Assembly: GCA_024408565.1 (NCBI GenBank)
Contig: JAKSUW010000005.1
Coordinates: 1 to 54,131 of the forward strand
From: Bacilli bacterium
Lineage (GTDB): Bacteria; Bacillota_I; Bacilli_A; RFN20; CAG-826
Direction of reading: 5' to 3'
DNA: 54,131 nt
Shown here: positions 41,427 through 54,131 of the stretch, in pieces
How positions within the stretch are numbered: the stretch's first letter is position 1
Layout of the letters: every line of letters starts with the position of its first letter
The notes under the pieces: generated by a model
Seen by the model: the letters and a program-made list of their open reading frames with translations, nothing else
Databases searched by the model: none
Told to the model about the DNA's origin: nothing
Program-made: the position numbers and the translations under genes

Positions 41427-41738
41427 TTATAGTTTGATATCAATATCAACCCCACTTGGTAAGTCTAACCGTCTTAAAATATCGACAGTTTCCTTCGTTG
41501 GGTTAGTGATATCGATGAGCCGTTTATGGGTCCGAATTTCAAATTGTTCACGCGCGTCTTTATATCTATGGACCGCTCGTAAGACCGTATAAACTTGTTT
41601 ATCCGTTGGTAACGGAATGGGGCCAACAGTCGTCGCTCCAGTTTTCTTGGCCGCTTCTAAAATCTTCTCGGCCCCAAGATCTAAGATCTTATGGTCGTAA
41701 GCTTTTAAGCGAACCCGAATGATTTTTGCTTTTGCCAT
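41427..41738 (-). CDS. rpsJ: 30S ribosomal protein S10
   Basis: RLKAYDH, GPIPLPT, REQFE.RTHKRL. Confidence 0.98.
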
Positions 41739-41902: not shown

Positions 41903-42165
41903 ATTATTCTTTTATAGACTAAATCTGAGTTCTTTATGTAAGTCATATAAAATTCATCTTCATCGTGACAATTAATAACTGATCTAATTTGATATTCTAA
42001 TATCGGAATATATGACTCTGGGTTTGAATTACCTATATCTAAGATATAGCAAGTATTACCGATTTCTATACCTTTCCGCTCAAAAAATTCCTTTATTTTG
42101 TTAAAATCATCGTTCCTAGCCCCATTTTCTGTGTCAGACAAATCATAGGATATCCCAATATGCAT
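41899..42165 (-). CDS. Small hypothetical protein, Cas2/VapD-like ferredoxin-fold candidate
   Basis: RBS AAGGAG; N-terminal strand ISYDL, helix, G..I.NTCYI pattern parallel to Cas2; 88 aa. Confidence 0.5.
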   Translation of the reverse strand: MHIGISYDLSDTENGARNDDFNKIKEFFERKGIEIGNTCYILDIGNSNPESYIPILEYQIRSVINCHDEDEFYMTYIKNSDLVYKRII

Positions 42166-42178
42166 GCCTATATCTCCT

Positions 42179-43087
42179 TCACTTAATTATCTCATCCCAA
42201 TCTTTAGGAAAACCTATATAGGATAAATTTAATACATTTGAATGCTTGCGGAAAATTGATTTAATTTGAAAATAAAAACTGTTCCAGTCAAACTTAAAAC
42301 TCTTTTCCATCATTCTTTTCAAAACCAATATGGATAAAAACAATCTAGGACCAAAATTAGGATCAAAGTATTTTTTGTCTTCATCAAATAGTAAAGGCGT
42401 TGTTTTCATAGGCATATTGTATAAACGGCAATAATGTGCACATTTATTTCTTATTTCTAATAAAGTAAGCATCCAGCTATATAATCTATCTGGCGAAATA
42501 CCAAATAAACTAGACACGCATTTTTTGTCCTTTCTTTTCATAATTCTGTATAAAGAAGATAGAGTCCCTAACGAAAATAATTCCGATGCCACCCAAATGG
42601 GAAATTTACCATTATATTTGCCAATATGATGCTTTACAAACGGTTGATCTTTTTGCCTACTTATTTCGTGATTTAAATTTTTCATTATATGTTCATGTAC
42701 AGTTTCATTAAGTTTATCTAGTTTAATCGGATTAAAGTTCTTTGGATTCAAGTATCCAATAGGACCATACGTAATGCCTAAAATATAAGAAATATGAGTT
42801 CTTAAATAAACTTCTAACGTCTCTATCTCTTTAATTAAAATGTTCCGTAATTTACTATCAAAAATATATAAATCGTAAAGAGTTTTAATAGACACGCCTT
42901 GGCGATATTCTTCTTTATTATCTGGCTTAGTAAGACCAGCGCCGTAGGCGGTTAAACGATAATAGTTTACTTTTTGGAGAATCTTAAGCGCGTTTTTACG
43001 ATTGGGGATGGTGAGTTTGTGAAAACACTCTAGGCGATCTAGTTGTTGCTCAAATGTTAGTGCATCTTTTAAACTCAATTTAGCCAT
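42179..43087 (-). CDS. Abi family protein (AbiF/AbiD, Abi_2), HEPN RNase
   Basis: LTFEQQLDRL, VNYYRL, LY.FD..LR, FPIW..EL.SLG.LS, RNKCAH (RxxxxH); start moved to ATG 43087. Confidence 0.92.
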   Translation of the reverse strand: MAKLSLKDALTFEQQLDRLECFHKLTIPNRKNALKILQKVNYYRLTAYGAGLTKPDNKEEYRQGVSIKTLYDLYIFDSKLRNILIKEIETLEVYLRTHISYILGITYGPIGYLNPKNFNPIKLDKLNETVHEHIMKNLNHEISRQKDQPFVKHHIGKYNGKFPIWVASELFSLGTLSSLYRIMKRKDKKCVSSLFGISPDRLYSWMLTLLEIRNKCAHYCRLYNMPMKTTPLLFDEDKKYFDPNFGPRLFLSILVLKRMMEKSFKFDWNSFYFQIKSIFRKHSNVLNLSYIGFPKDWDEIIK

Positions 43088-43095
43088 ATATGTGA

Positions 43096-43140
43096 AAAGT
43101 CCCACCCTGGTACGCATTGTTAAGAGGCGTGGTGGGCTCT
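43096..43140 (-). ncRNA. abiF-motif RNA (putative RNA antitoxin/leader)
   Basis: Minus strand AGAGCCCACCACGCCTCTTAACAATGCGTACCAGGGTGGGACTTT; CCCACC/GGTGGG stem with conserved-looking loop, directly upstream of the abiF-like gene. Confidence 0.75.
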
Positions 43141-43149
43141 GACGTAATT

Positions 43150-43178
43150 ATATTAGTATGGAAAATGTTAGGTGTCAA
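43150..43178 (-). promoter_or_regulatory. Promoter for the abiF RNA and gene
   Basis: Minus strand TTGACA-17 nt-TAATAT. Confidence 0.65.
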
Positions 43179-43246
43179 TACAATACATGCCAAAAAAATA
43201 TTAATCACGTTCCCGTCGCTTTTTTAACTATTACAAAGTAGTTACG

Positions 43247-44302
43247 CTATGCATAAACAATAGTCACTACACTTACTATGTTGCTTGCGAAATCCCATTT
43301 AAGAGCCACTTTATATTTGCTATTTCTATAAAAAATTGAAACATTGAAAATGATAATGAATGGGTCTTCTTTGCGTGCTGACATATGCGAAATTTGGTTA
43401 CTATTAATAGCGTTAGCAATCAATTGCTTTAATTCGTCTTTTTGGAAAACTATTTTCTTATTTTCCGATACGTACTTAAGTTTACTATCCGAGACATTAA
43501 TTTTAGGCATTTTGATATTTTTTATATCAAAATAGAAACAAATGGCGTACTTTAAGTCGTCTTTTAATGCCACTATCTGTTGTGGTCTCGCTGTTAAAAA
43601 AGTAATATAGTATAAATCGTTTATTGGGCATAATTTGAAATTGCCATTGGCAACTTTTACAAAAGTATAATTGCATTTGTCACCATCCTCTGCCACACTA
43701 TAAAGCAATTTTTTGCCGTCTTTGACAAAATTTTGTACTAAAAAATAAGTCAAAGCAAATTTTTCAATTGTAGGAAAAGTTATATTTTTTGAAAATAATA
43801 ATGCACCATTATTTTTAAACGCTTCTACAATTTTTTCTGCAGTTTTATCCGAAATGTTGCAAATTGCCAAAACACATATGTTATGTTTAAAAATAATATT
43901 AAAATCCACCCCGCTATCTTCGAAAATTTTCTTGTATATCCAAATTTTATTTTGATCAATAATTAAATCACCTGTTAAGAAGGCGCATTTAGATTTATCA
44001 TCGAGAACATTGATAGCTGTGTTAATAATCGGTTCAATATAATTACTTCGGGGTAAGGAATCAGAATTAAAAATAAACGCAAAAACATTTGTCGAAGGTT
44101 CAAGGGGCGCCCTTAATTCACTATAATTTATATCATAAGAAGATAATTTTTCTTTAAATTCGAAAAATAGTTTATTAATTAAATCTTTCTTAGTACTTTT
44201 AGGAAAAATACTCGATATGATTTGCAATACATCTGGATTTATTACATGAATGCTTTCCGAAACTTTTTTCTTGTTCATAGCAATATTACATCGTATAGAC
44301 AT
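43247..44302 (-). CDS. Hypothetical protein downstream of the OLD-family gene (alternative start 44278)
   Basis: 351-aa ORF 12 bp after the OLD gene; no motif I can assign. Confidence 0.75.
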   Translation of the reverse strand: MSIRCNIAMNKKKVSESIHVINPDVLQIISSIFPKSTKKDLINKLFFEFKEKLSSYDINYSELRAPLEPSTNVFAFIFNSDSLPRSNYIEPIINTAINVLDDKSKCAFLTGDLIIDQNKIWIYKKIFEDSGVDFNIIFKHNICVLAICNISDKTAEKIVEAFKNNGALLFSKNITFPTIEKFALTYFLVQNFVKDGKKLLYSVAEDGDKCNYTFVKVANGNFKLCPINDLYYITFLTARPQQIVALKDDLKYAICFYFDIKNIKMPKINVSDSKLKYVSENKKIVFQKDELKQLIANAINSNQISHMSARKEDPFIIIFNVSIFYRNSKYKVALKWDFASNIVSVVTIVYA

Positions 44303-44314
44303 ATAAAATTTTGC

Positions 44315-45619
44315 TTATTTTAACAGATTTTTAACTTCTTTTATTAAAGGATTTTCGCTGTTTAAAAAATCACTTACCATTTCTGCTATATCCATTTTTA
44401 TAGGAGAGTCATTATCTGCACCAATATCTTTATAAATATTCAACGAATGGCACTTGGCAAAGAAATCCGCCTTCGTCAAAGGGACGATGGTTGCATCAGA
44501 ATCAAACATTTGTCGATATGTATTAAGAGGAATATATAACTCTATACATTCTTTCGATAGTGAGTGCTCTTCGTCGCCTGAGTCTCCATCTTTAATGGTT
44601 TTACAGGTAAATCCATTGTGAATTAATTCTGATTTAACTGGTTCTATATTAGTATGACCGCCACATTGTATGACCAAATATTTGTTAGTTTCTCCAATAA
44701 TCTCAATGGCCTTTTTAATCCATTTCATATCAGTTTTACCCTCAACTAATACAAAAGTCTTTGTTTTTTCCACGCCACCCAAGTAACTATATAAATCAGT
44801 AATACTTTTCACATTATCGGTAAACAAAGGAACTACATCATTAATATCAGTTATTTTCATTATTTGTGTAGAATGAGTTGTTATTAAAGTTTGAGCAATT
44901 TTTTCTTTAATTGCAGCAACTAAATTCTCAACATTTTTATAGGAAAAAGAATTTTCTATCTCATCTATCCCGAGAATCACATTCTCATAATTTCCTGTAG
45001 TTAGCAAAGCATAAACTAAATTTTTTTGATATCCTGACCCGCGCCCTTCTAACGGAACCCCAGAACTATCTATGTTATACTTGATAGCCTTTTTAATATC
45101 GAGAGTTGAATTTGGCAATAAAGTTGTTGAATTGGCATTTTGAACAACTAACATTTTTCCGTCTATACTTTTCAAAATATCGTTTATCGCATCGTTAGCT
45201 GCATCAGTGATACTTTTGTCAGTTCCATCTCCAATTATTTTCTTTTCAACAATTGAGGATGCTAAATTCTCTAATATCTCAACAGGATTATCATTGTTAT
45301 ATGGAATATAGATATAAGATATCCCTTTTATATCCGCAATATTCATAGAAAGTTTTTCATCGAGTCTATAAGTTTTTCCTTTATAAACCTTTTTGATAAA
45401 TTTTTTCCCATCCGTAAAAATGCCAAACACCACCTCTTCATCTGGATTTCTAACAAAATCGGGATTTATTTTTTTGTCATTAAAAAATATATCTAGTGCT
45501 TCTAAAATGGTGCTTTTTCCAGAATCATTATCGCCAATGATAACATTATGTTTTTGAAAATAGATTGTTTTATCTTCGAATGCTTTAAAATTTTTGATAT
45601 AAATAGATTTTATTATCAT
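44315..45619 (-). CDS. OLD-family ATP-dependent nuclease (ABC ATPase + TOPRIM)
   Basis: I.IKNFKAF, GDNDSGKST, RGSG, IDEIENS, ITTHS; TOPRIM LVEGKTD, CGG, DGD. Confidence 0.85.
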   Translation of the reverse strand: MIIKSIYIKNFKAFEDKTIYFQKHNVIIGDNDSGKSTILEALDIFFNDKKINPDFVRNPDEEVVFGIFTDGKKFIKKVYKGKTYRLDEKLSMNIADIKGISYIYIPYNNDNPVEILENLASSIVEKKIIGDGTDKSITDAANDAINDILKSIDGKMLVVQNANSTTLLPNSTLDIKKAIKYNIDSSGVPLEGRGSGYQKNLVYALLTTGNYENVILGIDEIENSFSYKNVENLVAAIKEKIAQTLITTHSTQIMKITDINDVVPLFTDNVKSITDLYSYLGGVEKTKTFVLVEGKTDMKWIKKAIEIIGETNKYLVIQCGGHTNIEPVKSELIHNGFTCKTIKDGDSGDEEHSLSKECIELYIPLNTYRQMFDSDATIVPLTKADFFAKCHSLNIYKDIGADNDSPIKMDIAEMVSDFLNSENPLIKEVKNLLK

Positions 45620-45641
45620 ATATTTTGTTATCTCCTTATTT

Positions 45642-45674
45642 CATTATTGTATGCGACAATAATGCTATTATCAA
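45642..45674 (-). promoter_or_regulatory. Promoter of the OLD operon overlapped by a 9-bp inverted repeat
   Basis: Minus strand TTGATA-17 nt-TACAAT; CATTATTGT-N5-ACAATAATG at 45642-45664. Confidence 0.65.
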
Positions 45675-45814
45675 TGAAGGAAATCTACTAGAAACGAAGG
45701 CAGAAGATTCAAATAATCTCTTTTTACCTGCCACCCCTCGTTATCATTCGATGAGATGGGACTACTCGATGATAACTAAGTTATCATAGATTCTGTACTA
45801 TATATAGATTAATT

Positions 45815-45940
45815 AAAAATCTCCTACATATACTCCATATATAAAACTCACTATATATAAAGTATTATCTTAATAATCAAAACCCTGTTGTGCTAACTAG
45901 AGGGTACCCCACCACCCCATGATTGCGCAGCAATGATGGG
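45815..45940. repeat. Structured direct repeat, copy 1 (126 bp)
   Basis: Aligns with 46837-46963 with 5 substitutions and 2 small indels; contains hairpins ACCCT...AGGGT and CCCATGATTGC-N3-GCAATGATGGG. Confidence 0.93.
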
Positions 45941-45988
45941 TCACGCCCACATCTCACCGCTTTCTAATTCATAATCGATAAGCACCGA

Positions 45989-46780
45989 TTAATCGAACAT
46001 ATATTCGAGTGAACTATTATCATCTACTACATCAAGAATAGTTTCGTTCTTCTTTTGAAGTGTATAAGAGGTCTTAACCTTAAGGTTTTCTTTAATATAA
46101 CGAGACATTCTTCCTTTCGTGGGCGCCTTTAATAAATGTCCACCACTACCTAATACTTTTAAAGTAAAGACATACTTCCCTTTCTTCAAAATAATCTCAG
46201 TGGGACTAACTTTCTTTAATTTAACTAGATTATAAGTAGATAAATAATATTCATGATTATTGTTCTTAATAAAACAAAGAACGCCAATAAACTTAAAAAA
46301 CATGATCGGAATAGTGGCAATCGCTAAAGTAACCGTCTGATGATTGATAACTGAATTATACCAAACATACTTCTTCGGGAAATTAACCCCACGATCACCT
46401 TCAATATAACCCACTCCATGATTAAAACTATATTGTTTGTTATTATAAATAACACTACCTTCTAAAGTATGATACATCGAATAGATTTCATGCTTACATT
46501 CAAGCGGAAGAATACTAAATGGACCCATGACTCTTTTTCTTAGTGGATGTAGTTCGCCTAAGCTAATTATCCCTTCTAAAGACATATCTTCTTGTTTAAT
46601 CTTAAAATTAACCTTATTGTCAATTACTTTTACTGACTCTTTATCATTAATCACATGCGCTCCATCGTTAGTGATCACCTGTAACTCTGGACCATCATCT
46701 GAAGAACTAATAATAACCGCAAAAGAAAAACCATTCTCACTTACAAACTTATAATACTTACCAAAGAAATATTTTTTCAT
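45989..46780 (-). CDS. Tocopherol-cyclase-like family protein
   Basis: YFFGKYYK, MGPF..P.ECKH.IYSM.H, GYIEGDRG.NFP..Y.W; start at ATG 46780. Confidence 0.75.
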   Translation of the reverse strand: MKKYFFGKYYKFVSENGFSFAVIISSSDDGPELQVITNDGAHVINDKESVKVIDNKVNFKIKQEDMSLEGIISLGELHPLRKRVMGPFSILPLECKHEIYSMYHTLEGSVIYNNKQYSFNHGVGYIEGDRGVNFPKKYVWYNSVINHQTVTLAIATIPIMFFKFIGVLCFIKNNNHEYYLSTYNLVKLKKVSPTEIILKKGKYVFTLKVLGSGGHLLKAPTKGRMSRYIKENLKVKTSYTLQKKNETILDVVDDNSSLEYMFD

Positions 46781-46836
46781 TGCCTTAAATATTATCATAA
46801 CCCACCTACACTCATGTAATCATAATAAAACTAATA

Positions 46837-46963
46837 AAAAATCTCCTACATATACTCCATATATAAAACTTACTATATATAAGTATTATCTTAATAATCA
46901 AAAAACCCTGTTGTGCTAACAAGAGGGTACCCCATCACCCCATGATTGCATAGCAATGATGGG
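46837..46963. repeat. Structured direct repeat, copy 2 (127 bp)
   Basis: Near-identical to 45815-45940. Confidence 0.93.
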
Positions 46964-47282
46964 GCCGCCCCCCCTATACCTCTACCACTTCTTAAATTTA
47001 TGATAGATAACTAATTGAATTACCATATCTAACATCATCCTTATAAGTTAACAGTCGATAATCGATTAATGAATAAATAAGAGTCAGAAAAACTGTCATA
47101 TACCTAATATTAAAGAAAGAATCAGAGAAATCAATGCGGAAATTGAAGATGAGTGGTAACACCTATATTATGTAAACCAAACGAGTCATTTTAATATTTT
47201 TTATATTTATTCATAAATATATCCATTAAATATACGCAAAATGCCTCTTCCTTTTTACGTATGTAGTATTAGGAGGTATTTT

Positions 47283-47954
47283 ATGTTACAAAATAGTGAG
47301 GCTATTCAAAATCATGAGGAAGTTATCCAAAATAACACTCTTAGTGAAGATGAAGAAGATAAGGAGTTTGATCGCTTATTAACCGCTATTACGAGTATTT
47401 TAAATATCAAAGACTCTTGGTTTAGGTTCATCTTAGTTGATACATCTAATGGTAACAAGCTAGATGATGACTTTGCTATGCCATCCGGTATGGGTATTGG
47501 AGGCGGAAAGAAATATATTATCGCGATTGATGGAGAATTATGGACTAAATATATTGAAGAAACTAATCCAAAGATGAAAATAAAAAGATGTGCAGCATTC
47601 GTACGAGTTATCTCTCATGAATTTATGCATCTATATCAATTCAAGCATTCGTTTGATAAATACGCTAAAGAATTTTATTACGAAAAAAGCCTCCCTCACG
47701 ATCAAGATAATTGGAATTACCGGCAACATAAAAAATACATTAATCTTAGTATTGAACTTGAAGCCTATGCATTTGGACTACTTGTAGAATCTAAAATATT
47801 AAACAGAAAAAGAATAACCTATATCCCTTATGATATTAACAAATACCAATTCAGAAAAACTTATTTACAAATAAAATCTATCTACGAAAAGAAAATAGAA
47901 GAAGCATTTAATTTAAACAAAGAGGAAACCGACACTAAAGTTGTAAGGGAATAA
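47283..47954 (+). CDS. Zincin-like metallopeptidase-domain protein
   Basis: RBS AGGAGG before ATG 47283; HEFMH (HExxH) plus downstream ELEAYAF third-ligand helix. Confidence 0.7.
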   Translation: MLQNSEAIQNHEEVIQNNTLSEDEEDKEFDRLLTAITSILNIKDSWFRFILVDTSNGNKLDDDFAMPSGMGIGGGKKYIIAIDGELWTKYIEETNPKMKIKRCAAFVRVISHEFMHLYQFKHSFDKYAKEFYYEKSLPHDQDNWNYRQHKKYINLSIELEAYAFGLLVESKILNRKRITYIPYDINKYQFRKTYLQIKSIYEKKIEEAFNLNKEETDTKVVRE

Positions 47955-47974
47955 TAAGCGTATCCTAAACTAAG

Positions 47975-48023
47975 AAATTCCTATATATAACCATGTTGTG
48001 TAACAAGAGAGTACCCAATGATT
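47975..48023. repeat. Degenerate, condensed third copy of the island repeat
   Basis: aaccatgttgtgtaacaagagagtaccc (47989-48016) matches 26/29 of the copy-2 core aaccctgttgtgctaacaagagggtaccc; flanks aaattcctatatata and atgatt also echo the repeat. Confidence 0.7.
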
Positions 48024-48076
48024 AAAACTATATTTGGTTATTATAAATAACACTAAAATTTTCACAATAATTATGC

Positions 48077-48162
48077 AAAATGTTGGAAAAGTGCAAATAA
48101 TATAATGTAAAAATGTTGGAAAAATGCAAAAAAATAGCAAAAAAATGTTGGAAAAATGCAAA
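48077..48162 (+). repeat. Three phased 21-bp direct repeats upstream of the AAA ATPase
   Basis: AAAATGTTGGAAAA(G/A)TGCAAA at 48077, 48110 and 48142 (periods 33 and 32 bp), followed by TATAAT at 48170. Confidence 0.9.
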
Positions 48163-48197
48163 AATAATGTATAATAATGAGCAAAATAGGAGAAAAT

Positions 48198-49493
48198 ATG
48201 CTATTTAGAAAAGTTACAGATAAAATAGATAATTGGTATAAAAGCAACAAAACCGCATTGTTAATCGACGGCGCACGTCAAGTCGGTAAAACCACTATTA
48301 TTGAAGAATATCTTAATAATAGCGGCATAGATTATGTCGAATTTAATTTGTTTGATAACAAAATTGCCTGCAACGCATTTAATACCGCCATTGATGCCGA
48401 AGATCTATTACTTAAATTATCAGCAATTGCCAAAAAACCTATGACTAAAGGAAAAACTGTAATATTCGTTGATGAAGCTCAAGAGGCTGATGATGCAATT
48501 ACACCTATTAAATTTTTAGTAAAGAACGGCAGTTACCGTTTTATATTTTCTGGGTCTTTACTAGGGGTCAAAATGAAAGATATACAATCCATTCCGATTG
48601 GGTTTATGTCAGTTATTAATATGTATCCAATGGACTTTGAAGAATTCTTAATTGCTAATTCGGTTAATAAAGATACCATCGGATATTTAAAACTTTGCTA
48701 TCAACAATTTAAACCAGTTGATAGCGATATACATAGACAAATCATGAATATCTTTAATAAATACCTTGTTGTAGGCGGTTTGCCAAAAGCGGTTAAAGAA
48801 TATGTTGAAACTAATAACATTGATAAAGTAAGAGATGCTCAACGTGATGTCGATAAAGGCTATTTAATGGACGTTGCAAAATATAATTACGCTGAGAAAT
48901 TACTAATAGATGATATATATGAACTAATTCCCAGTGAGTTGAATGCCAAAAATAAGCGCTTTATCATTAAATCGTTAGATAAGAAAGCTAGATATTACAC
49001 TTATGAATCAAGTCTTGTGTGGTTAAAGAATAGTGCGATTGGTTTATTCACTTATACAGTCGATGAACCAGTATATCCACTTAGAGCGAGTGTTAAAAGA
49101 CAATTATTTAAGTTATTTTTATGCGATACCGGTTTATTAGTATATAAGTTAACTAAAAACACCGCCGCTAAGATATTAACTGGTCATATTAATATCAATT
49201 ATGGTTCAATCTATGAATCAATAGTCGCGCAAGAATTAACAGCGCATGAGATTCCTTTATATTATTACAACAACAAGAAGCATGGAGAGGTTGATTTCTT
49301 AATCGAAGACAATGATCAAATCATTCCAATCGAAGTAAAAAGTGGAAAAGACTACGATAGACACGTCGCATTAAACCAATTAATGAACATTGAAAATTAC
49401 CACATTAATAAAGCGTATGTTTTGTATAACGGAAATGGTGAGATTAAAGGTAAAAAAATATATATGCCAATCTATTTTGTGATGTTTATATGA
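48198..49493 (+). CDS. AAA_14 + DUF4143 family ATPase with C-terminal PD-(D/E)XK-like domain
   Basis: GARQVGKT, FVDEAQ, SGS, YPMDFEEF, GGLP, KLFLCDTG, EVDF...IPIEVKSG; RBS AGGAG before ATG 48198. Confidence 0.88.
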   Translation: MLFRKVTDKIDNWYKSNKTALLIDGARQVGKTTIIEEYLNNSGIDYVEFNLFDNKIACNAFNTAIDAEDLLLKLSAIAKKPMTKGKTVIFVDEAQEADDAITPIKFLVKNGSYRFIFSGSLLGVKMKDIQSIPIGFMSVINMYPMDFEEFLIANSVNKDTIGYLKLCYQQFKPVDSDIHRQIMNIFNKYLVVGGLPKAVKEYVETNNIDKVRDAQRDVDKGYLMDVAKYNYAEKLLIDDIYELIPSELNAKNKRFIIKSLDKKARYYTYESSLVWLKNSAIGLFTYTVDEPVYPLRASVKRQLFKLFLCDTGLLVYKLTKNTAAKILTGHININYGSIYESIVAQELTAHEIPLYYYNNKKHGEVDFLIEDNDQIIPIEVKSGKDYDRHVALNQLMNIENYHINKAYVLYNGNGEIKGKKIYMPIYFVMFI

Positions 49494-50984
49494 TTAAAAT
49501 TGACATTGATGAATTTATCAAGGATATTAATAACAATATCAAAAATTACGCTACGGATTATGAGCGAGTCGGCATTGACTTTAAAACCATCACCCAAAAT
49601 CAAATTAATATTCTTTACGAACGAACACTGTCCTCAATAACTAATTATTTTATCTATACCGAATTTCAAAAACTAAAAACCAATGTAGAATTATGGGCGA
49701 ACGAAACAAAAATACTTTTTGAAAACGGGATTAACGCTTTTGATTTTTCCGATTTAAAGAAAGAAGTAGGCTTAAAGTCAAAAAGTAAATCATATAGAGA
49801 AATGTGGAAAAATTATTGTGTGCCAGATGGCCTTTTTGTTATTAATGATATTATGTACGAGCCATTCTATCTATTTGTCGAGTACAAATTAAACCAAGAC
49901 TTAGTATATATTGATTTAGCATTAGATTACCTAAAATATAAAGCATACACATACAAAAGCCGTTTAAAGTCAGCCTTTGCATTTGTTATATTTGATAAAA
50001 ACGAAAAATATCCAACAATTATTAGTTCAAGTCCCCCGTATTTCCAAATACTAAACAAGACAATTTCGCCATCTATGGATATGGAAAAAAGGGTGTGCAT
50101 ATATAAAAATTTAGAAATTAAAGACGATGACAGTGATTTTGACTTCAACGAATTAAGTGACTCAATACAACAGTTTACCGAATTGTCTACTTTATCATCG
50201 GATATCCTATGTTACGAAGATAAAATCGGACTAATTGCAGACGATAATATTTTTATAAATTCTATGGAAAAGTTTAACAAGCGTATTATTAATGCTCAAA
50301 TTATTAGAGATAATTACAGTTACATAGTGGCTATGTGGAATGCTTGCGAAAAGAACAAAGTGTTTGATGATATTTATAAGGATTTTGATTTAAATTTTAA
50401 AGAAGAATTAACAGACGAAAAAATAATCGATGAAGGATCGCATTATTCTGCATGCTTTGATGAGAGCATTAATTTAAAGGCTAGAGTTCGAGCAATGGAG
50501 GACGGAATAAGAGGTTCTTCTTATGCATCTTTTAATGTAATAGTTCTCATTGATTATTTTAATAATTATTTTGGTATTGATAAAACTATTATTCCTATGT
50601 ATGGCAAAACAAAAATCGGAAGGAATATTAAAGAAAAAGAAGAAATAGATTTCAATAAAACAGCGATGGCACAAAAAGCAAAAATAGATAGACATTATGG
50701 AAATGACTTACAAAAAGGCAAAAAAATTAGAAAATTAACATATGCGTTAATGTATTACATAAAAAAAATTATATGAAACTATCTATGAGATAAATGAAAA
50801 TAATGCAATCGGAGAATATAATGAGGCCTATAAAAGCTATGTTTTAGCTGGTCAATTCAACGAAAAAATAGAAAAAATCAGTCGGCGTTTTAAATATACA
50901 AAACCAATAAAATTGAATATAAATTTAAGAAATACAAAAGCAGAGTTATTAAAACTAGTTGAACACATTATTACAAAAATATAA
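49490..50984 (+). pseudogene. Putative PD-(D/E)XK nuclease, frameshifted at an A8 tract (428 aa as read; 497 aa with A7)
   Basis: VPDG...FVEYK motif; ATGA overlap with the ATPase; removing one A at 50761-50768 extends the ORF by 71 codons to TAA 50982-50984. Confidence 0.65.
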
Positions 50985-50988
50985 ACAA

Positions 50989-51696
50989 CTACAAAATTAT
51001 TCTAATTTCGCGTGGTAAAGACCAAAAAACTTGATATTTATAATTATTTTGGTGTTTTAAAAAAGCATCATCAATTTCCTTTTTTATCTCATTTTTGAAT
51101 TCAGAGGGCAGGTGAATAATCAAATTACTAATACTACTAGTTAAGCCCTTCTTCATTTTGCCTTCTAGCATGGTAGTACATAAGTCTTTTTGATTAAGAA
51201 GAAACTTATTATGCCCGACTTTATTTCTGAGTGCCACTAAAGCTTTTTTATTCGCTTTTGTTTCAACATTCGGGAAAAGTGCAACAAAATCCTCGTCTGG
51301 TAAATGATATGCCACGTCGACTAGATTGCTAAAAAGATCATATGATAATAAATCAAATGTTTTATTGCTGTTTTTTGATAGTTTTCTTGCATCTTCTCCT
51401 ATAAATTTATTACATCCATTAGGCAAATCTTTCTCTAAAGAATACTTATTAGATATATAGGCCCGCATATTTTCTTCTAAAAAGCCCAAAAATTTATATA
51501 GTATCCTTCTAATACGCTTGTCATATCTCATTGTTGAAGCCACTTCACAATAAGTAGGGGTTCTATTTAGTTTCTTTTTGAGAAAATTAGCAACATTGAT
51601 ATGCTCTTGAATCCCGCGCCTGTCTAAATACACCTTAGCAGATTCTATCTCATCAGGTTCAATCTTAACTAATTTGAAAAAACTATCGTAATCCAT
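50989..51696 (-). CDS. Compact Abi-like HEPN domain protein
   Basis: RYDKRIRRILYKFLGFLEENMR (Abi_2-like) and LRNKVGH (RxxxxH). Confidence 0.75.
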   Translation of the reverse strand: MDYDSFFKLVKIEPDEIESAKVYLDRRGIQEHINVANFLKKKLNRTPTYCEVASTMRYDKRIRRILYKFLGFLEENMRAYISNKYSLEKDLPNGCNKFIGEDARKLSKNSNKTFDLLSYDLFSNLVDVAYHLPDEDFVALFPNVETKANKKALVALRNKVGHNKFLLNQKDLCTTMLEGKMKKGLTSSISNLIIHLPSEFKNEIKKEIDDAFLKHQNNYKYQVFWSLPREIRIIL

Positions 51697-52312
51697 ATTT
51701 TTGTTCTAGCTCATTAACCGTTTCTAGTAATAGGGAAAAAGAATCTTTATCTTTAGACCTATTTTTCTTTATTAAATATAACTCTTTAATTTCTACCCAA
51801 TATCCCATCCTTTTTAATTTAGTGAATCGTTCTTGGAAATTCTTAGATTTAGGTATTCTCCCCCATATGTATGCATTGTTTGGTTTATCATAGTATAATT
51901 TGTACCATTTATGATTCTTTTCATCATCAAACATTATTGCGAAATCAGCCGAATATCTATATCCATTAATCTTAAAATTATTACTCTTAATGGTAATAGC
52001 GGATGTTGAATCACAAACATGGGTGTCTTTGGGCAAGCATTCTCTAAATGCGTTCATAATTGTTAATTTGAATTTTTTGGCATCATTAGTAATACCGATT
52101 TTATCTTTTTGAATCATTAAGTTGTAATCTAAATCAATATGCCCATTAGAATCAACTGTAATTAAATTTCTTTTAGCGCTTCCAACGAGGTTGAAAGAAA
52201 AAGTAAATTGACATCTAACAATATTTTGGGTCTTTAAAATAACATTATCAAAATAATTAATTAATTTTAATCTAACTGCTGAAACATTTAAATAAGAATA
52301 GTTATACTTCAT
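51683..52312 (-). CDS. Pol-beta superfamily nucleotidyltransferase (compact SMODS/CD-NTase-like)
   Basis: hGS motif LVGSAKR, DLD, DSTSAITIK strand, third Asp in SADFAI. Confidence 0.7.
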   Translation of the reverse strand: MKYNYSYLNVSAVRLKLINYFDNVILKTQNIVRCQFTFSFNLVGSAKRNLITVDSNGHIDLDYNLMIQKDKIGITNDAKKFKLTIMNAFRECLPKDTHVCDSTSAITIKSNNFKINGYRYSADFAIMFDDEKNHKWYKLYYDKPNNAYIWGRIPKSKNFQERFTKLKRMGYWVEIKELYLIKKNRSKDKDSFSLLLETVNELEQKYGLR

Positions 52313-53360
52313 TTCTATAATGTTTCAAATGTTGCTTTATAGATCTTCCGATAACTTGTCCTAGTTTTACAGGAACAGCATTTCCTATATGTCTAGCAAT
52401 TGTATTCATTGAAAAAGGAATTTTTGGATCAATAAAATTATATTTTTTTGGAAAAGTCTGAAGAATAGCCCCCTCTCTTAAAGAAATCGCTCTATTTTGA
52501 TTTGGGTGTCCGAATCTTCCTGTACCATAACTATAAAATTCTGTAGTAATAGTAGGCCCAATTTTCCCCCAACTCATTCTTCCATAAACAGAAGAATAGG
52601 TGATGCCAGACTTTTTTTTGTGGCAACTGCATAATAGTGACTTTGGCCAATCTTTCCAAGTCCCCCCTTGTTTGGAGGCTTTAATACGCATTAAGTTCTT
52701 TTTAGACAAAGCAGCAGATCGATGTAGTGGATCTTTTGGATATATTTCGCCGGCTTCTATCGGCGGCATGTTACATATAAAAGAATTTATATTTACTTTT
52801 TTTCTATCATGAGTCGGCTTGATTAAATCTATATTACCTAATTTTGATGCCAATAAAACGAATCTGTGCCTATTTTGTGGAATTCCATAATCTGGACAAT
52901 AAACCACTTCTCCGCCACTTGTATAATAACCATTATCATTAAGAATACTGACAAAGTCTTTATATACATTAGTTTTTCTTATAGCAGGAACGTTTTCCAT
53001 AGAAATAATGGTAGGCTTTAATTCTTTAACTATTCTTCCAAATTCCATAAGCAAATCATATTTATCATCACTTTCTCGAGGCACATTCTTAAAACGCTTA
53101 AAACTCATATTTGAAAAGGGTTGGCATGGTGCACACCCAACCAAAATATGAATAGATTTTGGTGAATAATACTTTTTTATATCATTTCCTCTAACAAAAC
53201 GAATATTTTTGTTAACAAATTGAGTTTTATTATTATGCTCATAAGCATATTTACATGTTGCATCATTGTCAAAACCTGCAATAACTTTTAAACCGCTTCT
53301 TTTTAATCCGCAAGTTAAGCCGCCTACTCCGCAAAACAAATCAACAACTTCTATATCCAT
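52302..53360 (-). CDS. DNA (cytosine-5) methyltransferase
   Basis: DLFCGVGG (I), GCAPCQPFS (IV), MENV (VI), PQNRHR (VIII), LREGAILQTFP (IX), IGNAVP (X). Confidence 0.95.
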   Translation of the reverse strand: MDIEVVDLFCGVGGLTCGLKRSGLKVIAGFDNDATCKYAYEHNNKTQFVNKNIRFVRGNDIKKYYSPKSIHILVGCAPCQPFSNMSFKRFKNVPRESDDKYDLLMEFGRIVKELKPTIISMENVPAIRKTNVYKDFVSILNDNGYYTSGGEVVYCPDYGIPQNRHRFVLLASKLGNIDLIKPTHDRKKVNINSFICNMPPIEAGEIYPKDPLHRSAALSKKNLMRIKASKQGGTWKDWPKSLLCSCHKKKSGITYSSVYGRMSWGKIGPTITTEFYSYGTGRFGHPNQNRAISLREGAILQTFPKKYNFIDPKIPFSMNTIARHIGNAVPVKLGQVIGRSIKQHLKHYRNEV

Positions 53361-53482
53361 ATTTTGTGTTCATTAACAAGAATATCATAGCACTTATATT
53401 TTTTGAATATAACAATATTAAAAAATATTTGTATATTTCAGTATACAATGTGTTATTGTTAACATATATAGGGGATTTATTC

Positions 53483-54131
53483 ATGATGAACAAGAAATAT
53501 AAATTGGAGATTGATCCGAGAATTTTAACCGTTTTAAGCCAAAATTTATATTCTAATCTTTACTATGTTCTGTCCGAACTTATTGCTAATGCTTATGATG
53601 CTGACGCGCATAATGTCTATATTAAAATTGATAATTCTACTGTGATTGTTGAAGACGATGGTTGCGGCATGAACAATGATGAAGTAGATAAATATTTAAT
53701 TGTTGGAAACGAATCTAGGAATAGCGAAGCGAATGCAAAAACTAAATTAGGGAGAAATAAAATTGGCAGAAAAGGGATTGGAAAACTTTCCGCATTATCT
53801 ATTTCTACAGAATATAAATTATTAACGAAACAAAATGGCGTTACTAATGGTTTTATTGTTAGAAATAATATAAAACGCGATGAATATCTAACATCAATTG
53901 AAGTTAAGGACGAAATGTTTGAATTTATTAAAGAAACCAAAACTGGAACTAGAGTTGAAATATTTAATGCTAATTTCCAATTTAACGATGATATAGATAT
54001 AATTGCTAAGAATATATTAAAGATATTCCCTATTCTTTCAAAAGACTTTAAACTCAATATATTTTACAAAGATAAACATAAAGTTTTGCAAAATTATGAT
54101 GAAGAAATAATTCAACAGTTATCAACTTTAA
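53483..54131 (+). CDS. MORC/GHKL ATPase (HATPase_c_3), probable restriction component; 3'-truncated by the window edge and not in the ORF track
   Basis: Manual translation MMNKKYKLEIDPRILTVLSQNLYSN...SELIANAYDADA...EDDGCGM...GRKGIGKLS...GTRVEI; frame stays open to the window end. Confidence 0.88.
   Translation, partial: MMNKKYKLEIDPRILTVLSQNLYSNLYYVLSELIANAYDADAHNVYIKIDNSTVIVEDDGCGMNNDEVDKYLIVGNESRNSEANAKTKLGRNKIGRKGIGKLSALSISTEYKLLTKQNGVTNGFIVRNNIKRDEYLTSIEVKDEMFEFIKETKTGTRVEIFNANFQFNDDIDIIAKNILKIFPILSKDFKLNIFYKDKHKVLQNYDEEIIQQLSTL

Follow-up and report, generated by a model that had tools for sequence, protein, structure and literature searches.

How is a predicted toxic RNase restrained when its gene starts inside that of a compact nucleotidyltransferase (NTase)? 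The question is raised by three co-oriented genes near one end of the window (the whole stretch of Bacilli DNA analysed here, 54,131 nucleotides), encoding an m5C DNA methyltransferase (MTase), an NTase of 209 residues and a HEPN protein of the Abi type. A sequence-only reading of the locus had taken all three genes as one candidate defence operon. We find that the NTase and Abi genes form a conserved, so far undescribed two-gene module, which is probably a suicide switch in phage defence.

Layout of the locus

The open reading frames at issue are the following.

53483..54131, plus strand: restriction endonuclease gene of the BbrUII/HgiDII family, divergent to the MTase gene, of which only the 5' part precedes the contig end
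52302..53360, minus strand: m5C DNA methyltransferase gene, 352 aa, first of the three-gene string
51683..52312, minus strand: compact NTase, 209 aa, predicted cGAS/CD-NTase fold, first core component of the module
50989..51696, minus strand: short AbiF-like HEPN RNase, 235 aa, predicted toxin/effector, second core component

The three co-oriented genes described earlier match these coordinates exactly, and both of the overlaps claimed for them can be read in the sequence. The MTase stop and the NTase start share 11 nt (ATGAAGTATAA), while the NTase stop and the Abi start share 14 nt (ATGGATTACGATAG). The two core genes together span 1.3 kb. Scanning 50500–53800 for transcription signals was uninformative: nothing like a terminator appeared, and the 26 promoter-like sites compare with an expectation of 19.6 ± 4.2. 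The two-gene module is probably co-transcribed with the MTase gene, which probably belongs to a BbrUII/HgiDII-type restriction-modification (RM) system. The low-GC defence island of the window contains several systems.

The MTase gene is complete, and its 352-aa product is identified as a C-5 cytosine DNA methylase by PF00145 (E = 1.2e-53), TIGR00675 and the PADLOC MTase_II/DrmMII models. For the divergent restriction gene, the longest open reading frame runs from 53366, and the family match starts near the ATG at 53483. This match, to NF050001, covers profile positions 1–198 of 659 (E = 4.9e-41; 141 bits against a cut-off of 550 bits), and the gene also matches PADLOC REase_II (E = 2.8e-24). 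No further piece of it was found elsewhere in the assembly. GTCGAC, which we take to be the recognition site of HgiDII/BbrUII, has 4 sites against 6.1 ± 2.5 expected, and hence shows no avoidance.

Two predicted enzymes and a missing RNA

The NTase carries the motifs L42-V-G44-S45, D60-L-D62 and D123, with 14 residues between S45 and D60 (GS-x14-DxD). Residues G44, S45, D60, D62 and D123 are invariant across 50 aligned relatives and are kept in 217–220 of the 224 family domains. When the AF2 model (pLDDT 91.8) was compared with solved structures, the best eight VIA matches were all bacterial CD-NTases (Z 10.6–12.1, 177–187 residues aligned), and each of the first 39 matches was a Pol-beta-fold NTase or a Mab21-like protein. 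Chains of cGAS, cGLR and OAS2 are also among the fold matches listed (OAS2 at Z 7.8); the 50 VIA matches listed include none of an MNT. The best Foldseek match is CdnB (7ljo, E = 2.3e-6). Invariant motifs, AF2 model and VIA matches thus agree on the Pol-beta fold and full catalytic set that had been read from the sequence, and on this evidence we place the NTase in the Pol-beta-fold nucleotidyltransferase superfamily.

No Pfam family matches the NTase at E ≤ 0.01, and this holds for SMODS (PF18144), DncV-like (PF21654) and PF01909. Nor does any family of PADLOC, NCBIfam or PHROGs, the last giving only marginal matches of unknown function. Its profile returned only chance matches among the sequences of solved structures (E of at least 0.42), and a plasmid collection gave no tblastn match. 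The family comprises 1195 clusters at 50% identity and, of 399 genomes sampled from the phylum, 57 contain it. Rare members are fusions of the NTase to a nuclease domain, namely PIN7 (P0132), HNH (P0207), GmrSD_N (P0232) and HSDR_N (P0234). NTase-Abi fusions were found neither in 229 proteins nor in 10 longer ones, the search of the longer proteins being weak evidence.

The partner protein has the catalytic motif R157-N-K-V-G-H162, followed by N-K-F. In nine aligned relatives R157, N158, H162 and the motif RYDKRIRR are invariant, and the same three residues are kept in all 25 NTase-linked and all 30 canonical Abi proteins compared; D59, R63 and E74 join them as residues common to the subfamily and the canonical 30. 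The protein matches Abi_2 (PF07751) with E = 6.6e-4 and 20.5 bits. This falls under the cut-off of 25.6 bits, which is passed by 14 of the 20 neighbour genes that match the A2 profile (18 NTase-linked and 2 Abi-only; L052 reaches 43.5 bits and L063 39.0 bits). Its AF2 model (pLDDT 90.3) is matched best in VIA by PbAbiF (8vz6_B; Z 11.4, rmsd 3.8, 221 of 235 residues aligned), and then by Cas13 HEPN domains, the next match standing at Z 7.7. Among the sequences of solved structures, the Abi profile picks out the same 8vz6 at E = 0.27, with only the first HEPN motif aligned. The Abi_2 match under the cut-off and the PbAbiF fold match support the earlier description of an Abi-like HEPN protein; by fold and motifs, we regard it as an AbiF-type HEPN protein. 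Both the NTase and its HEPN partner look catalytically competent across the family, as judged from their conserved residues.

With canonical AbiD/AbiF proteins the subfamily shares the HEPN branch (by fold), the motifs [YF]D..[LI]R...E and RN...H, and a context of defence islands and phages. It differs in several ways. Canonical proteins are ∼300–340 aa long, score well over 100 bits on PF07751 and have an upstream abiF RNA, whereas members of the subfamily are ∼220–250 aa long, lie mostly near or under the Pfam cut-off and have a protein NTase gene in place of the RNA. They also differ at two positions of the conserved first HEPN motif, where Tyr takes the place of Phe. Of 25 NTase-linked proteins, 24 have Tyr at position 58 and 20 have it at position 49; of 30 canonical ones, 26 have Phe at position 58 (and none has Tyr), and 25 have Phe at position 49. 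Hydroxyls specific to the NTase-linked class would suit nucleotidylylation of the RNase. Tyr58 is nonetheless a weak lead, as the NTase-linked and canonical proteins are separate lineages and the difference may be inherited. It is retained by three subfamily members that have no NTase and is missing from three divergent pairs.

Canonical AbiD/F proteins are reported to be toxic and to be neutralised by the upstream abiF RNA, a small RNA that binds AbiF directly (PMC13064643; 10.1101/2025.04.15.648962). The window has a second, canonical Abi_2 gene (42179–43117), and beside it an abiF RNA (RF03085) was scored at 43100–43136, with 44.7 bits against the Rfam gathering score of 37 bits. Near the NTase-linked Abi gene, Rfam gave no match of any kind at E ≤ 1 in 46000–54131, and no abiF RNA was found in nine paired loci (the window's L001 included) or in three Abi-only loci. 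One caveat here is that the Rfam abiF model is insensitive, scoring in just 1 of 20 canonical Abi_2 loci, and hence the absence of matches counts little. The missing intergenic space is the stronger argument: as the Abi gene starts inside the NTase gene, there is no room for an upstream abiF RNA.

Pairing of the two families across genomes

In 18 of 40 related loci of other genomes, genes of the NTase and Abi families are neighbours that overlap or stand no more than 13 nt apart. Sixteen of these co-oriented pairs are in the gene map, where the spacing ranges from −41 to +13 nt and both gene orders occur; two more, L055 and L064, were recovered by eye. The 40 loci contain 41 NTase genes, for which an Abi gene is co-oriented in 18 cases, divergent in 3 and absent in 20, and the Abi cluster is the only recurring neighbour of the NTase. 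Counted from the other side, the Abi subfamily profile has 21 full-length matches in 399 genomes, and 18 of them adjoin an NTase match (degraded in one case, in G280). The three members without an NTase neighbour are in G317, G324 C6 and G116. The genes found upstream of NTase-less Abi genes, a pantothenate kinase gene and a 91-aa open reading frame, do not resemble the NTase.

At most loci, NTase and Abi identity to the window pair drop together. There is also an exchange of partners, in which the Abi protein nearest to the window's, with 81% identity, adjoins an NTase only 41% identical. In phage PV036423.1, an Abi-like gene (hhalign probability 97.6%) overlaps the NTase gene by 26 nt. The adjacency of the two genes is more than chance, and the earlier proposal of an NTase-HEPN pair is supported, the 18 of 40 loci and the 18 of 21 Abi genes showing a real, conserved functional unit. 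The pair matches no system already named in PADLOC, NCBIfam or Pfam, and it was absent from the literature searched, with supplementary tables of the papers on AbiF and the origin of Cas13 outside the scope of that search. A predicted complex of the two proteins scored 0.11 against a mark of 0.32, which speaks neither for nor against binding.

Eleven NTases form a clade with no Abi neighbour. A stop-tolerant genome search with the Abi profile revealed no hidden or decayed Abi genes beside the solo NTases, and BLAST found no small open reading frame or DNA motif shared by their downstream flanks. In the upstream flanks, BLAST similarities were the only signal, and these are at least partly due to tRNA genes. 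Given that the catalytic residues are conserved across the family, the existence of this clade argues that the NTase has a function of its own. At the same time, a toxin that rarely occurs without its partner, and a partner that often occurs alone, are what one would expect of toxin and antidote.

Possible modes of regulation

It is quite possible, if somewhat short of probable, that nucleotidyl transfer by the NTase is what restrains the RNase, in a module of the abortive-infection or toxin-antitoxin type. The AbiF-class HEPN RNase (235 aa) would be the toxic effector, and translational coupling would keep the compact CD-NTase-fold enzyme, predicted to be active, at a constant ratio to it. 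The NTase would act as a negative regulator, with NTPs being spent to keep the RNase off in uninfected cells, and would take over the part that abiF, a non-coding RNA, plays in neutralising canonical AbiD/F toxins. The likeliest route would be covalent nucleotidylylation of the RNase, like that of HepT by MntA, a nucleotidyltransferase reported to neutralise this HEPN toxin by adding three AMPs to a Tyr (PMC7641770). Phage infection would then halt the supply of NTase or reverse the modification, such that RNA would be cut and the infection aborted. The PIN7, HNH, GmrSD_N and HSDR_N fusions fit the NTase as a control module for nucleases.

The parallel with HepT/MntA extends to the genes: in both cases those for a Pol-beta NTase and an Rx4H HEPN RNase are adjacent and often overlap, and fused forms are described there (PMC13000451) just as the NTase family here has nuclease fusions. 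The proteins themselves differ. An MNT has ∼100–140 aa, belongs to PF01909 and is defined by the motif GSX10DXD (PMC7641770), whereas the NTase here has ∼210 aa, no PF01909 match, the longer GS-x14-DxD spacing and a CD-NTase-type helical lobe. The HEPN protein, too, is of another kind, belonging to the AbiF/Cas13 branch, with 235 aa and neither DUF86 nor the RX4HXY tyrosine. At position 164, the +2 position of that motif, Tyr is absent from the 9 aligned and the 25 NTase-linked Abi proteins, and the +3 position after RX4H is an invariant Phe in the aligned nine. On sequence grounds, then, two features count against nucleotidylylation, namely an NTase that is not an MNT and a HEPN partner that lacks the acceptor Tyr. 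The partner exchange described above would likewise be easier with a diffusible product than with recognition of the toxin surface by the NTase.

A diffusible product is also what one would expect if the NTase sensed infection and made a messenger nucleotide or oligonucleotide that turned the RNase on, as in CBASS or OAS/RNase L, a reading that we consider unlikely. The closest solved folds are indeed CBASS CD-NTases (CdnB, CdnD, CdnE, CdnG, DncV), which share the conserved GS/DxD/D catalytic set, and the two-gene layout of NTase and effector is that of type I CBASS. The nearest named Atlas clusters are SMODS/DncV-like as well, with a score of 0.85 that makes them a lead only, 0.9 being the level for anything more. 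Furthermore, OAS, an enzyme of the same fold class, activates the HEPN/KEN RNase RNase L in antiviral RNA decay, and the two constitute an established NTase-HEPN signalling pair. However, the NTase is ∼90–160 residues shorter than CBASS CD-NTases and aligns to about their first two thirds (approximately residues 15–205 of 290 in CdnB and 14–221 of 331 in DwCdnB), where the full two-lobed cage, consisting of the core and a complete C-terminal helical lobe, takes about 270–400 aa; it also has no SMODS/DncV-like Pfam match. Neither Pfam nor the fold search detected a CARF, SAVED, STING or other known nucleotide-sensor domain in the Abi protein, in line with the lack of CARF and SAVED noted before, and the ankyrin and pseudokinase domains through which RNase L senses 2-5A are absent here. 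Where the NTase is fused directly to a small PIN or HNH domain, there is no room for a separate ligand sensor. Moreover, the genomic asymmetry (18 of 21 Abi genes with an NTase, 20 of 41 NTases alone) is not what an activator and its effector would be expected to show and suggests that the NTase protects rather than activates, unlike in CBASS. The likeness to OAS/RNase L is one at superfamily level, with the direction of regulation probably opposite.

A protective product is conceivable, too. The NTase may be an enzymatic replacement for the RNA antitoxin, making an untemplated oligonucleotide that holds the AbiF-like RNase by filling the site where canonical AbiF binds abiF RNA; a phage nuclease or NTP depletion would free the RNase, and infection would be sensed as loss of the product. 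We judge this unlikely, but there is a precedent in Hailong, another two-gene operon in which an NTase negatively regulates a toxic effector via a constitutive product, the poly-dA made by HalB holding the effector shut (PMC13434031). The effector there, HalA, is described as a membrane channel and not an RNase. Consistent with an oligonucleotide guard, the small RNA that neutralises canonical AbiF does so by binding to it directly, the solved PbAbiF structure that gives our best fold match is an RNA complex, and the NTase-linked subfamily has neither an RNA gene nor space for one. Of the 224 NTase domains, 215 retain Tyr179, and the partner exchange is compatible with such a guard. On the other side, the NTase matches HalB neither in sequence nor among the folds listed, nothing favours polymerase activity over a single transfer, and PIN and HNH nucleases, to which the NTase can be fused, are not known to be gated by RNA. 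Protein priming through the near-N-terminal Tyr7 was considered and rejected: 32 of 224 domains have Phe or Trp there, and this aromatic is thus not a priming hydroxyl.

It is more doubtful that the NTase acts on RNA itself, tailing or marking 3' ends (of tRNA, for example) as a second toxin or in the repair or marking of HEPN-cut ends. Terminal uridylyl- and poly(A)-transferases share its fold (Z 7–9), a whole clade of the NTases works without Abi, and three solo NTases (L036, L037, L046) lie directly downstream of co-oriented tRNA genes. The NTase toxins MenT and AbiEii, which modify tRNA 3' ends, offer a parallel. The NTase shows no similarity to either (DUF1814 for AbiEii) in Pfam or among the VIA matches listed, however, and since tRNA genes often serve as integration sites, lying next to one may only mark an island. 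Action on RNA would also leave unexplained the rarity of Abi subfamily members without an NTase.

The sequence-only reading saw the pair as wired into the RM locus, a suicide backup of the PrrC/RloC kind that monitors the RM system and fires when a phage disables it. In the window, translational coupling joins the pair to the MTase, from which the restriction gene diverges, and R-M operons with HEPN genes of the Abi2 family inside them are on record (PMC3710099). This arrangement is not seen elsewhere. Leaving the window aside, a DNA methyltransferase lies within two genes of the pair in 0 of 18 co-oriented cases; the upstream gene differs by locus (a KAP-like NTPase in L031, an AlbA_2/HATPase_c_4 protein in L035), and the only other methyltransferases seen are near three NTases that are unpaired or divergent (L032, L033, L062). 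The phage pair has no annotated MTase or restriction gene in the 8.6 kb shown, and Pfam and NCBIfam detect no PrrC-like ATPase or anticodon-nuclease domain. Of the associations looked for among NTase homologues, then, the one with HEPN genes holds and the one with RM genes does not. The RM link is a property of this genome's defence island rather than of the module: the NTase-Abi pair is the conserved unit, and the MTase probably belongs to a neighbouring type II RM system. A guard role of the PrrC/RloC type is without comparative support, and we regard it as very improbable.

Although defence islands, including that of the window, pack unrelated systems tightly, it is scarcely credible that these are two single-gene systems that merely adjoin, with the families adjacent in both orders and with overlapping ends across many genera, their identities to the window pair falling in step at most loci, and Abi the sole recurring neighbour of the NTase.

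AbiD/F proteins are among the commonest abortive-infection genes and have been proposed as ancestors of Cas13, yet they have so far been known only as RNA-neutralised (type III) toxins. The NTase family, having no Pfam, NCBIfam or PADLOC entry, is missed by current defence-system finders. If the oligonucleotide guard were true, the module would be a bacterial mirror image of OAS/RNase L and a second, RNase-based form of the Hailong guard logic, with the same NTase also serving PIN, HNH and restriction-type nucleases as a portable control unit. More generally, a sizeable branch of the Abi proteins travels with an enzyme of the cGAS/CD-NTase fold, which would put the RNase scaffold under a second, chemically different control and would join type VII nucleotidylylation, the nucleotidyltransferases of the CBASS/OAS type and the AbiF/Cas13 RNases.

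Three overlapping genes and their surroundings

The ORF listing and the junction sequences confirm the sequence-only reading of three overlapping minus-strand genes:

Genes of the overlapping string
52302-53360, minus strand: C-5 cytosine DNA methyltransferase, 352 aa (PF00145, E 1.2e-53; TIGR00675; PADLOC MTase_II and DrmMII models)
51683-52312, minus strand: compact nucleotidyltransferase (NTase), 209 aa (ORF; no Pfam, PADLOC or NCBIfam match)
50989-51696, minus strand: AbiF-like HEPN protein (Abi), 235 aa (ORF; sub-threshold Abi_2 match; weak PADLOC AbiD match)

Read from the junctions, the methyltransferase and NTase genes overlap by 11 nt (ATGAAGTATAA) and the NTase and Abi genes by 14 nt (ATGGATTACGATAG). 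Divergent from the methyltransferase gene lies a restriction enzyme gene of the BbrUII/HgiDII family (NF050001, E 4.9e-41), of which only the 5′ part is present before the contig ends (profile positions 1-198 of 659); no remaining piece of it was found in the 26-contig assembly.

Window positions 42000-54131 form a low-GC island (0.27-0.32, versus 0.37-0.48 before it), which begins right after the ribosomal S10 gene (41427-41738), extends to the contig end and has several defence-type modules packed inside. At 43247-45619 on the minus strand, an OLD-family ATPase (434 aa; AAA_15, 4.4e-25; weak TOPRIM match) is followed by a 351-aa protein without a Pfam family, together a possible Gabija-, PARIS- or AbiL-like pair. 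On the plus strand at 48177-50776, convergent with the Abi gene, is a DUF4143/AAA_14 ATPase matching PADLOC candidate PDC-S01 (1e-169); its gene has a 4-nt overlap with that of a 428-aa protein lacking a Pfam, NCBIfam or PHROGs family.

Family and fold of the two proteins

A search of 5.8 billion proteins returned 73 NTase relatives of 135-257 aa, mostly about 200-220 aa; apart from one probable chimera, they lack Pfam domains. Of 1.84 billion cluster representatives, the NTase profile matched 1195 at E <= 0.001, 283 of them at E <= 1e-30, and the PHROGs match of the 209-aa protein was marginal only. Residues G44, S45, D60, D62, K82, D123, Y179 and S191 are invariant in 50 aligned NTases; each of the five catalytic-type residues is found in 217-220 of 224 family domains, and Y179 in 215. 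With the AlphaFold model, which is confident (pLDDT 91.8, pTM 0.85), Foldseek gave 54 matches at E <= 0.001, CdnB, DncV, CdnG and CdnE in front. The top eight in an all-against-all structural search were bacterial CD-NTases (Z 10.6-12.1, 177-187 residues aligned); the 209 residues cover about the N-terminal two thirds of these enzymes. Below them rank cGAS-like receptors, terminal uridylyltransferases, OAS2 and poly(A) polymerases; no MNT, AbiEii/MenT or HalB chain is among the best 50 matches listed. In the ESM Atlas only unnamed Bacillota clusters appear at 0.98, and SMODS/DncV-like clusters at 0.85 are a lead only. Because the catalytic residues are kept and the confident Pol-beta-type fold matches are led by CD-NTases, the earlier description of a compact nucleotidyltransferase with a full catalytic set was right. 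The predicted structure places it closer to the cGAS/CD-NTase fold class than to MNT.

Extensions longer than 60 aa occur in 13 of 220 NTase family proteins. P0132 has a C-terminal PIN domain (PIN7, 5.6e-16) and P0207 a C-terminal HNH domain (2e-10); among ten longer proteins, P0232 and P0234 join an N-terminal GmrSD_N and HSDR_N domain, respectively, to a full NTase, and P0182 is a tandem NTase-NTase. In several of the other longer proteins the NTase is truncated, and their genes may be broken or wrongly called. Every fusion is a singleton cluster from metagenomes, and in every interpretable case the partner is a nuclease.

Eight relatives of the 235-aa protein turned up, five of them with Pfam Abi_2; the protein itself scores 20.5 bits against a cut-off of 25.6. 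Among the invariant residues are R57-Y-D-K-R-I-R-R64, E74, E75 and R157-N158...H162. The structural model is confident (pLDDT 90.3), and its best match by far is PbAbiF with its non-coding RNA (8vz6_B, Z 11.4, 221 of 235 residues). Cas13 HEPN domains and Swt1 come next (Z 5.5-7.7), Foldseek agrees, and a profile search aligned the RYDKRIRR motif to RFDKKLR of 8vz6. Within the HEPN RNases, it is a short protein of the AbiD/F branch.

Two larger proteins, encoded divergently from an NTase gene in genomes G249 and G073, where TGA is Trp (L059:6686-8503, 605 aa, and L065:4131-5975, 614 aa), have two RNxxxH motifs (RNDVNH, RNKLIH) and an AbiF-like first motif. By these motifs they would be two-HEPN AbiF-like proteins, reminiscent of the fusion proposed toward Cas13. 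Separately, in all seven genomes of genus g26 (G037, G016, G048, G019, G138, G004, G003) the Abi-subfamily profile hits a frame of roughly 198 aa at E 1e-12 to 1e-9. The match covers profile positions 13-115 in five of the genomes, 13-108 in one and 13-214 in another. In each genome the frame lies a long way from any NTase, and it may be a relative that has been domesticated and conserved, or an unrelated one.

Conservation and neighbourhood of the NTase-Abi pair

Among 399 scored genomes sampled from the phylum, the window's own included, the NTase profile matched 57, from 42 of 172 genera, including some in which TGA is a sense codon. From 69 NTase places listed, 46 near-full-length ones were chosen and 40 stretches of about 12.6 kb, holding 41 of them, were taken. 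Left out were partial or stop-ridden matches and the full-length places G196 C29, G324 C32, G185, G071 and G205. Gene calls came from a simple script that takes the longest ORF, with table 4 applied as required.

A co-oriented Abi-subfamily gene lies directly beside 18 of the 41 NTase genes; three (L059, L062, L065) have an Abi-like neighbour in divergent orientation and 20 have no Abi neighbour. Abi matches also abut two of the five unfetched full-length places. The order is NTase then Abi in 11 of the co-oriented pairs and Abi then NTase in seven; the 16 pairs from the gene map are spaced -41 to +13 nt apart (L055 and L064 were added by eye). Counted from the Abi side, the link is sharper: of 21 full-length Abi-subfamily matches in the 399 genomes (E <= 1e-13, covering 190 or more of the 233 profile positions), 18 adjoin an NTase match (one NTase decayed); two of the three away from an NTase (G317, G324 C6, G116) are among housekeeping genes. 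An all-against-all comparison of three genes each side found no other recurrent neighbour of the NTase. In phage PV036423.1, a 225-aa gene matching the Abi profile (hhalign 97.6%, E 2.7e-12) overlaps an NTase gene by 26 nt.

In a FastTree phylogeny (LG+gamma, midpoint-rooted, support not examined) the window NTase belongs to a seven-member clade, and all seven are in pairs whose NTase gene comes first; eleven solo NTases form a separate clade. The solo genes L036, L037 and L046 have co-oriented tRNA genes 115-270 nt upstream of them, an eight-tRNA cluster in L046; this adjacency may reflect sites where islands integrate, or point to RNA as a substrate.

In most loci, the identity of the NTase to its window counterpart declines together with that of the Abi. 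There are two exceptions: P0012/P0075, from adjacent locus tags in one MAG, where the Abi is 81% and the NTase only 41% identical, and P0003/P0076, at 61% and 43%. In the NTase of the former pair, the last 24 residues are identical to the window's at 19 of 24 positions, versus 64 of the 188 alignment columns before, which points to a recombination joint within the 3′ end of the NTase gene; that end would thus travel with the Abi gene. The NTase-Abi pairing is real and conserved.

The proposal that the module is wired into a restriction-modification (RM) locus should be downgraded. In a Pfam scan of neighbours at -2 to +2 in the 40 NTase loci, DNA methyltransferases occurred only in L032 (N6_N4), L033 (D12, beside the solo copy) and L062 (two Dcm), whose NTases are all unpaired or divergent, and none lay within two genes of the other 18 co-oriented pairs (window apart). 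The genes upstream of pairs vary, among them a KAP-like NTPase (L031, 47-nt overlap), an AlbA_2/HATPase_c_4 protein (L035, 19-nt overlap) and an SF1 helicase (L048). Many neighbours of NTase loci are of defence or mobile-element type (ThsB-TIR, AbiH, AAA_21, DUF4143, type I HsdR, recombinases, Fic). The module resides in defence islands and, in the window's genome, has come to sit behind an RM methyltransferase.

Canonical AbiF and a proposed role of the NTase

By a 2026 review (PMC13064643) and a study of C. difficile AbiF (10.1101/2025.04.15.648962), AbiD/F proteins are toxic and are classed as type III toxin-antitoxin systems because a small upstream RNA with abiF motifs neutralises them; the Cas13-origin paper names this RNA RF03085. 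Pfam Abi_2 matches 100 of the 399 genomes, the proteins typically being of 300-340 aa and 100-180 bits, and no NTase lies beside such a strong canonical match in any of the 399. The window has a canonical type III AbiF module at 42179-43136 on the minus strand, 8 kb from the NTase-linked gene. It comprises a 312-aa Abi_2 gene (42179-43117; PF07751, 1.4e-52) and, upstream and overlapping the longest-ORF start, an abiF RNA (RF03085, 43100-43136; 44.7 bits versus a 37-bit gathering score). No Rfam match was found near the NTase-linked Abi gene in the window, whose start codon lies inside the NTase gene and thus leaves no intergenic space for an abiF RNA. Nine paired loci (the window's L001 included) and three Abi-only loci likewise gave no Rfam match to the RNA, a weak negative because the model scored only 1 of 20 canonical loci.

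Aligned together, 25 distinct NTase-linked Abi proteins and 30 canonical ones have a common core of D59, R63, E74, R157, N158 and H162. Position 58 is Tyr in 24/25 NTase-linked proteins and Phe in 26/30 canonical ones (Tyr in 0/30), and position 49 is Tyr in 20/25 and Phe in 25/30 (Tyr in 0/30), a contrast to be read in light of the two groups being distinct lineages; position 57 is Arg in 22/25 and variable in canonical proteins. Tyr58 is kept in the three NTase-less members of the subfamily and absent from the three divergent pairs. Tyr58 and Tyr49 are candidate acceptor sites, only a lead.

A toxin-antidote logic fits the data best: the AbiF-class RNase would be the toxin and the NTase its antidote, with gene coupling giving the two a fixed stoichiometry. 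We favour it because the AbiF-class family is experimentally toxic, because this Abi branch almost never occurs without an NTase while the NTase is often alone, and because the genes are coupled and the usual RNA antidote is missing. In HepT/MntA, a HEPN RNase is neutralised by an NTase through AMPylation (PMC7641770). From the toxin-antidote fit and this precedent we chose, tentatively and with somewhat less than even confidence, a reading in which the NTase would be a catalytic negative regulator of the RNase, most likely by nucleotidylylating it. The MNT family, GSX10DXD spacing and RX4HXY tyrosine that define HepT/MntA are absent here, so the likeness is one of 'works like', not 'member of'.

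That the NTase makes a messenger which switches the RNase on, in the manner of CBASS or of OAS and RNase L, is unlikely; its fold and the partner swap in P0012/P0075 favour a messenger, but the asymmetric dependence of Abi and NTase and the lack of a sensor domain argue against one. An NTase-made inhibitory oligonucleotide in place of the abiF RNA, like Hailong, seems rather improbable. There is a slim chance that the NTase acts on RNA ends, a reading to which the clade of solo NTases and the three solo genes just downstream of tRNA genes lend some weight. A built-in RM guard function, which finds no comparative support among the neighbouring genes, is disfavoured as very improbable, and mere adjacency of the NTase and Abi genes is barely credible.

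No model in PADLOC 2.0, NCBIfam 20 or Pfam covers the NTase, and a full-text literature search, confined to the listings and searched passages of the available papers, returned none that describes AbiD/F proteins with an NTase partner. In the 2013 HEPN survey, Abi2 appears solely as a gene embedded in R-M operons or alongside ParB/HNH proteins (PMC3710099), and a term search of two AbiF/Cas13 papers found no mention of a nucleotidyltransferase. The NTase-Abi pair relates to two known kinds of system, NTase-HEPN pairs and AbiF toxins.
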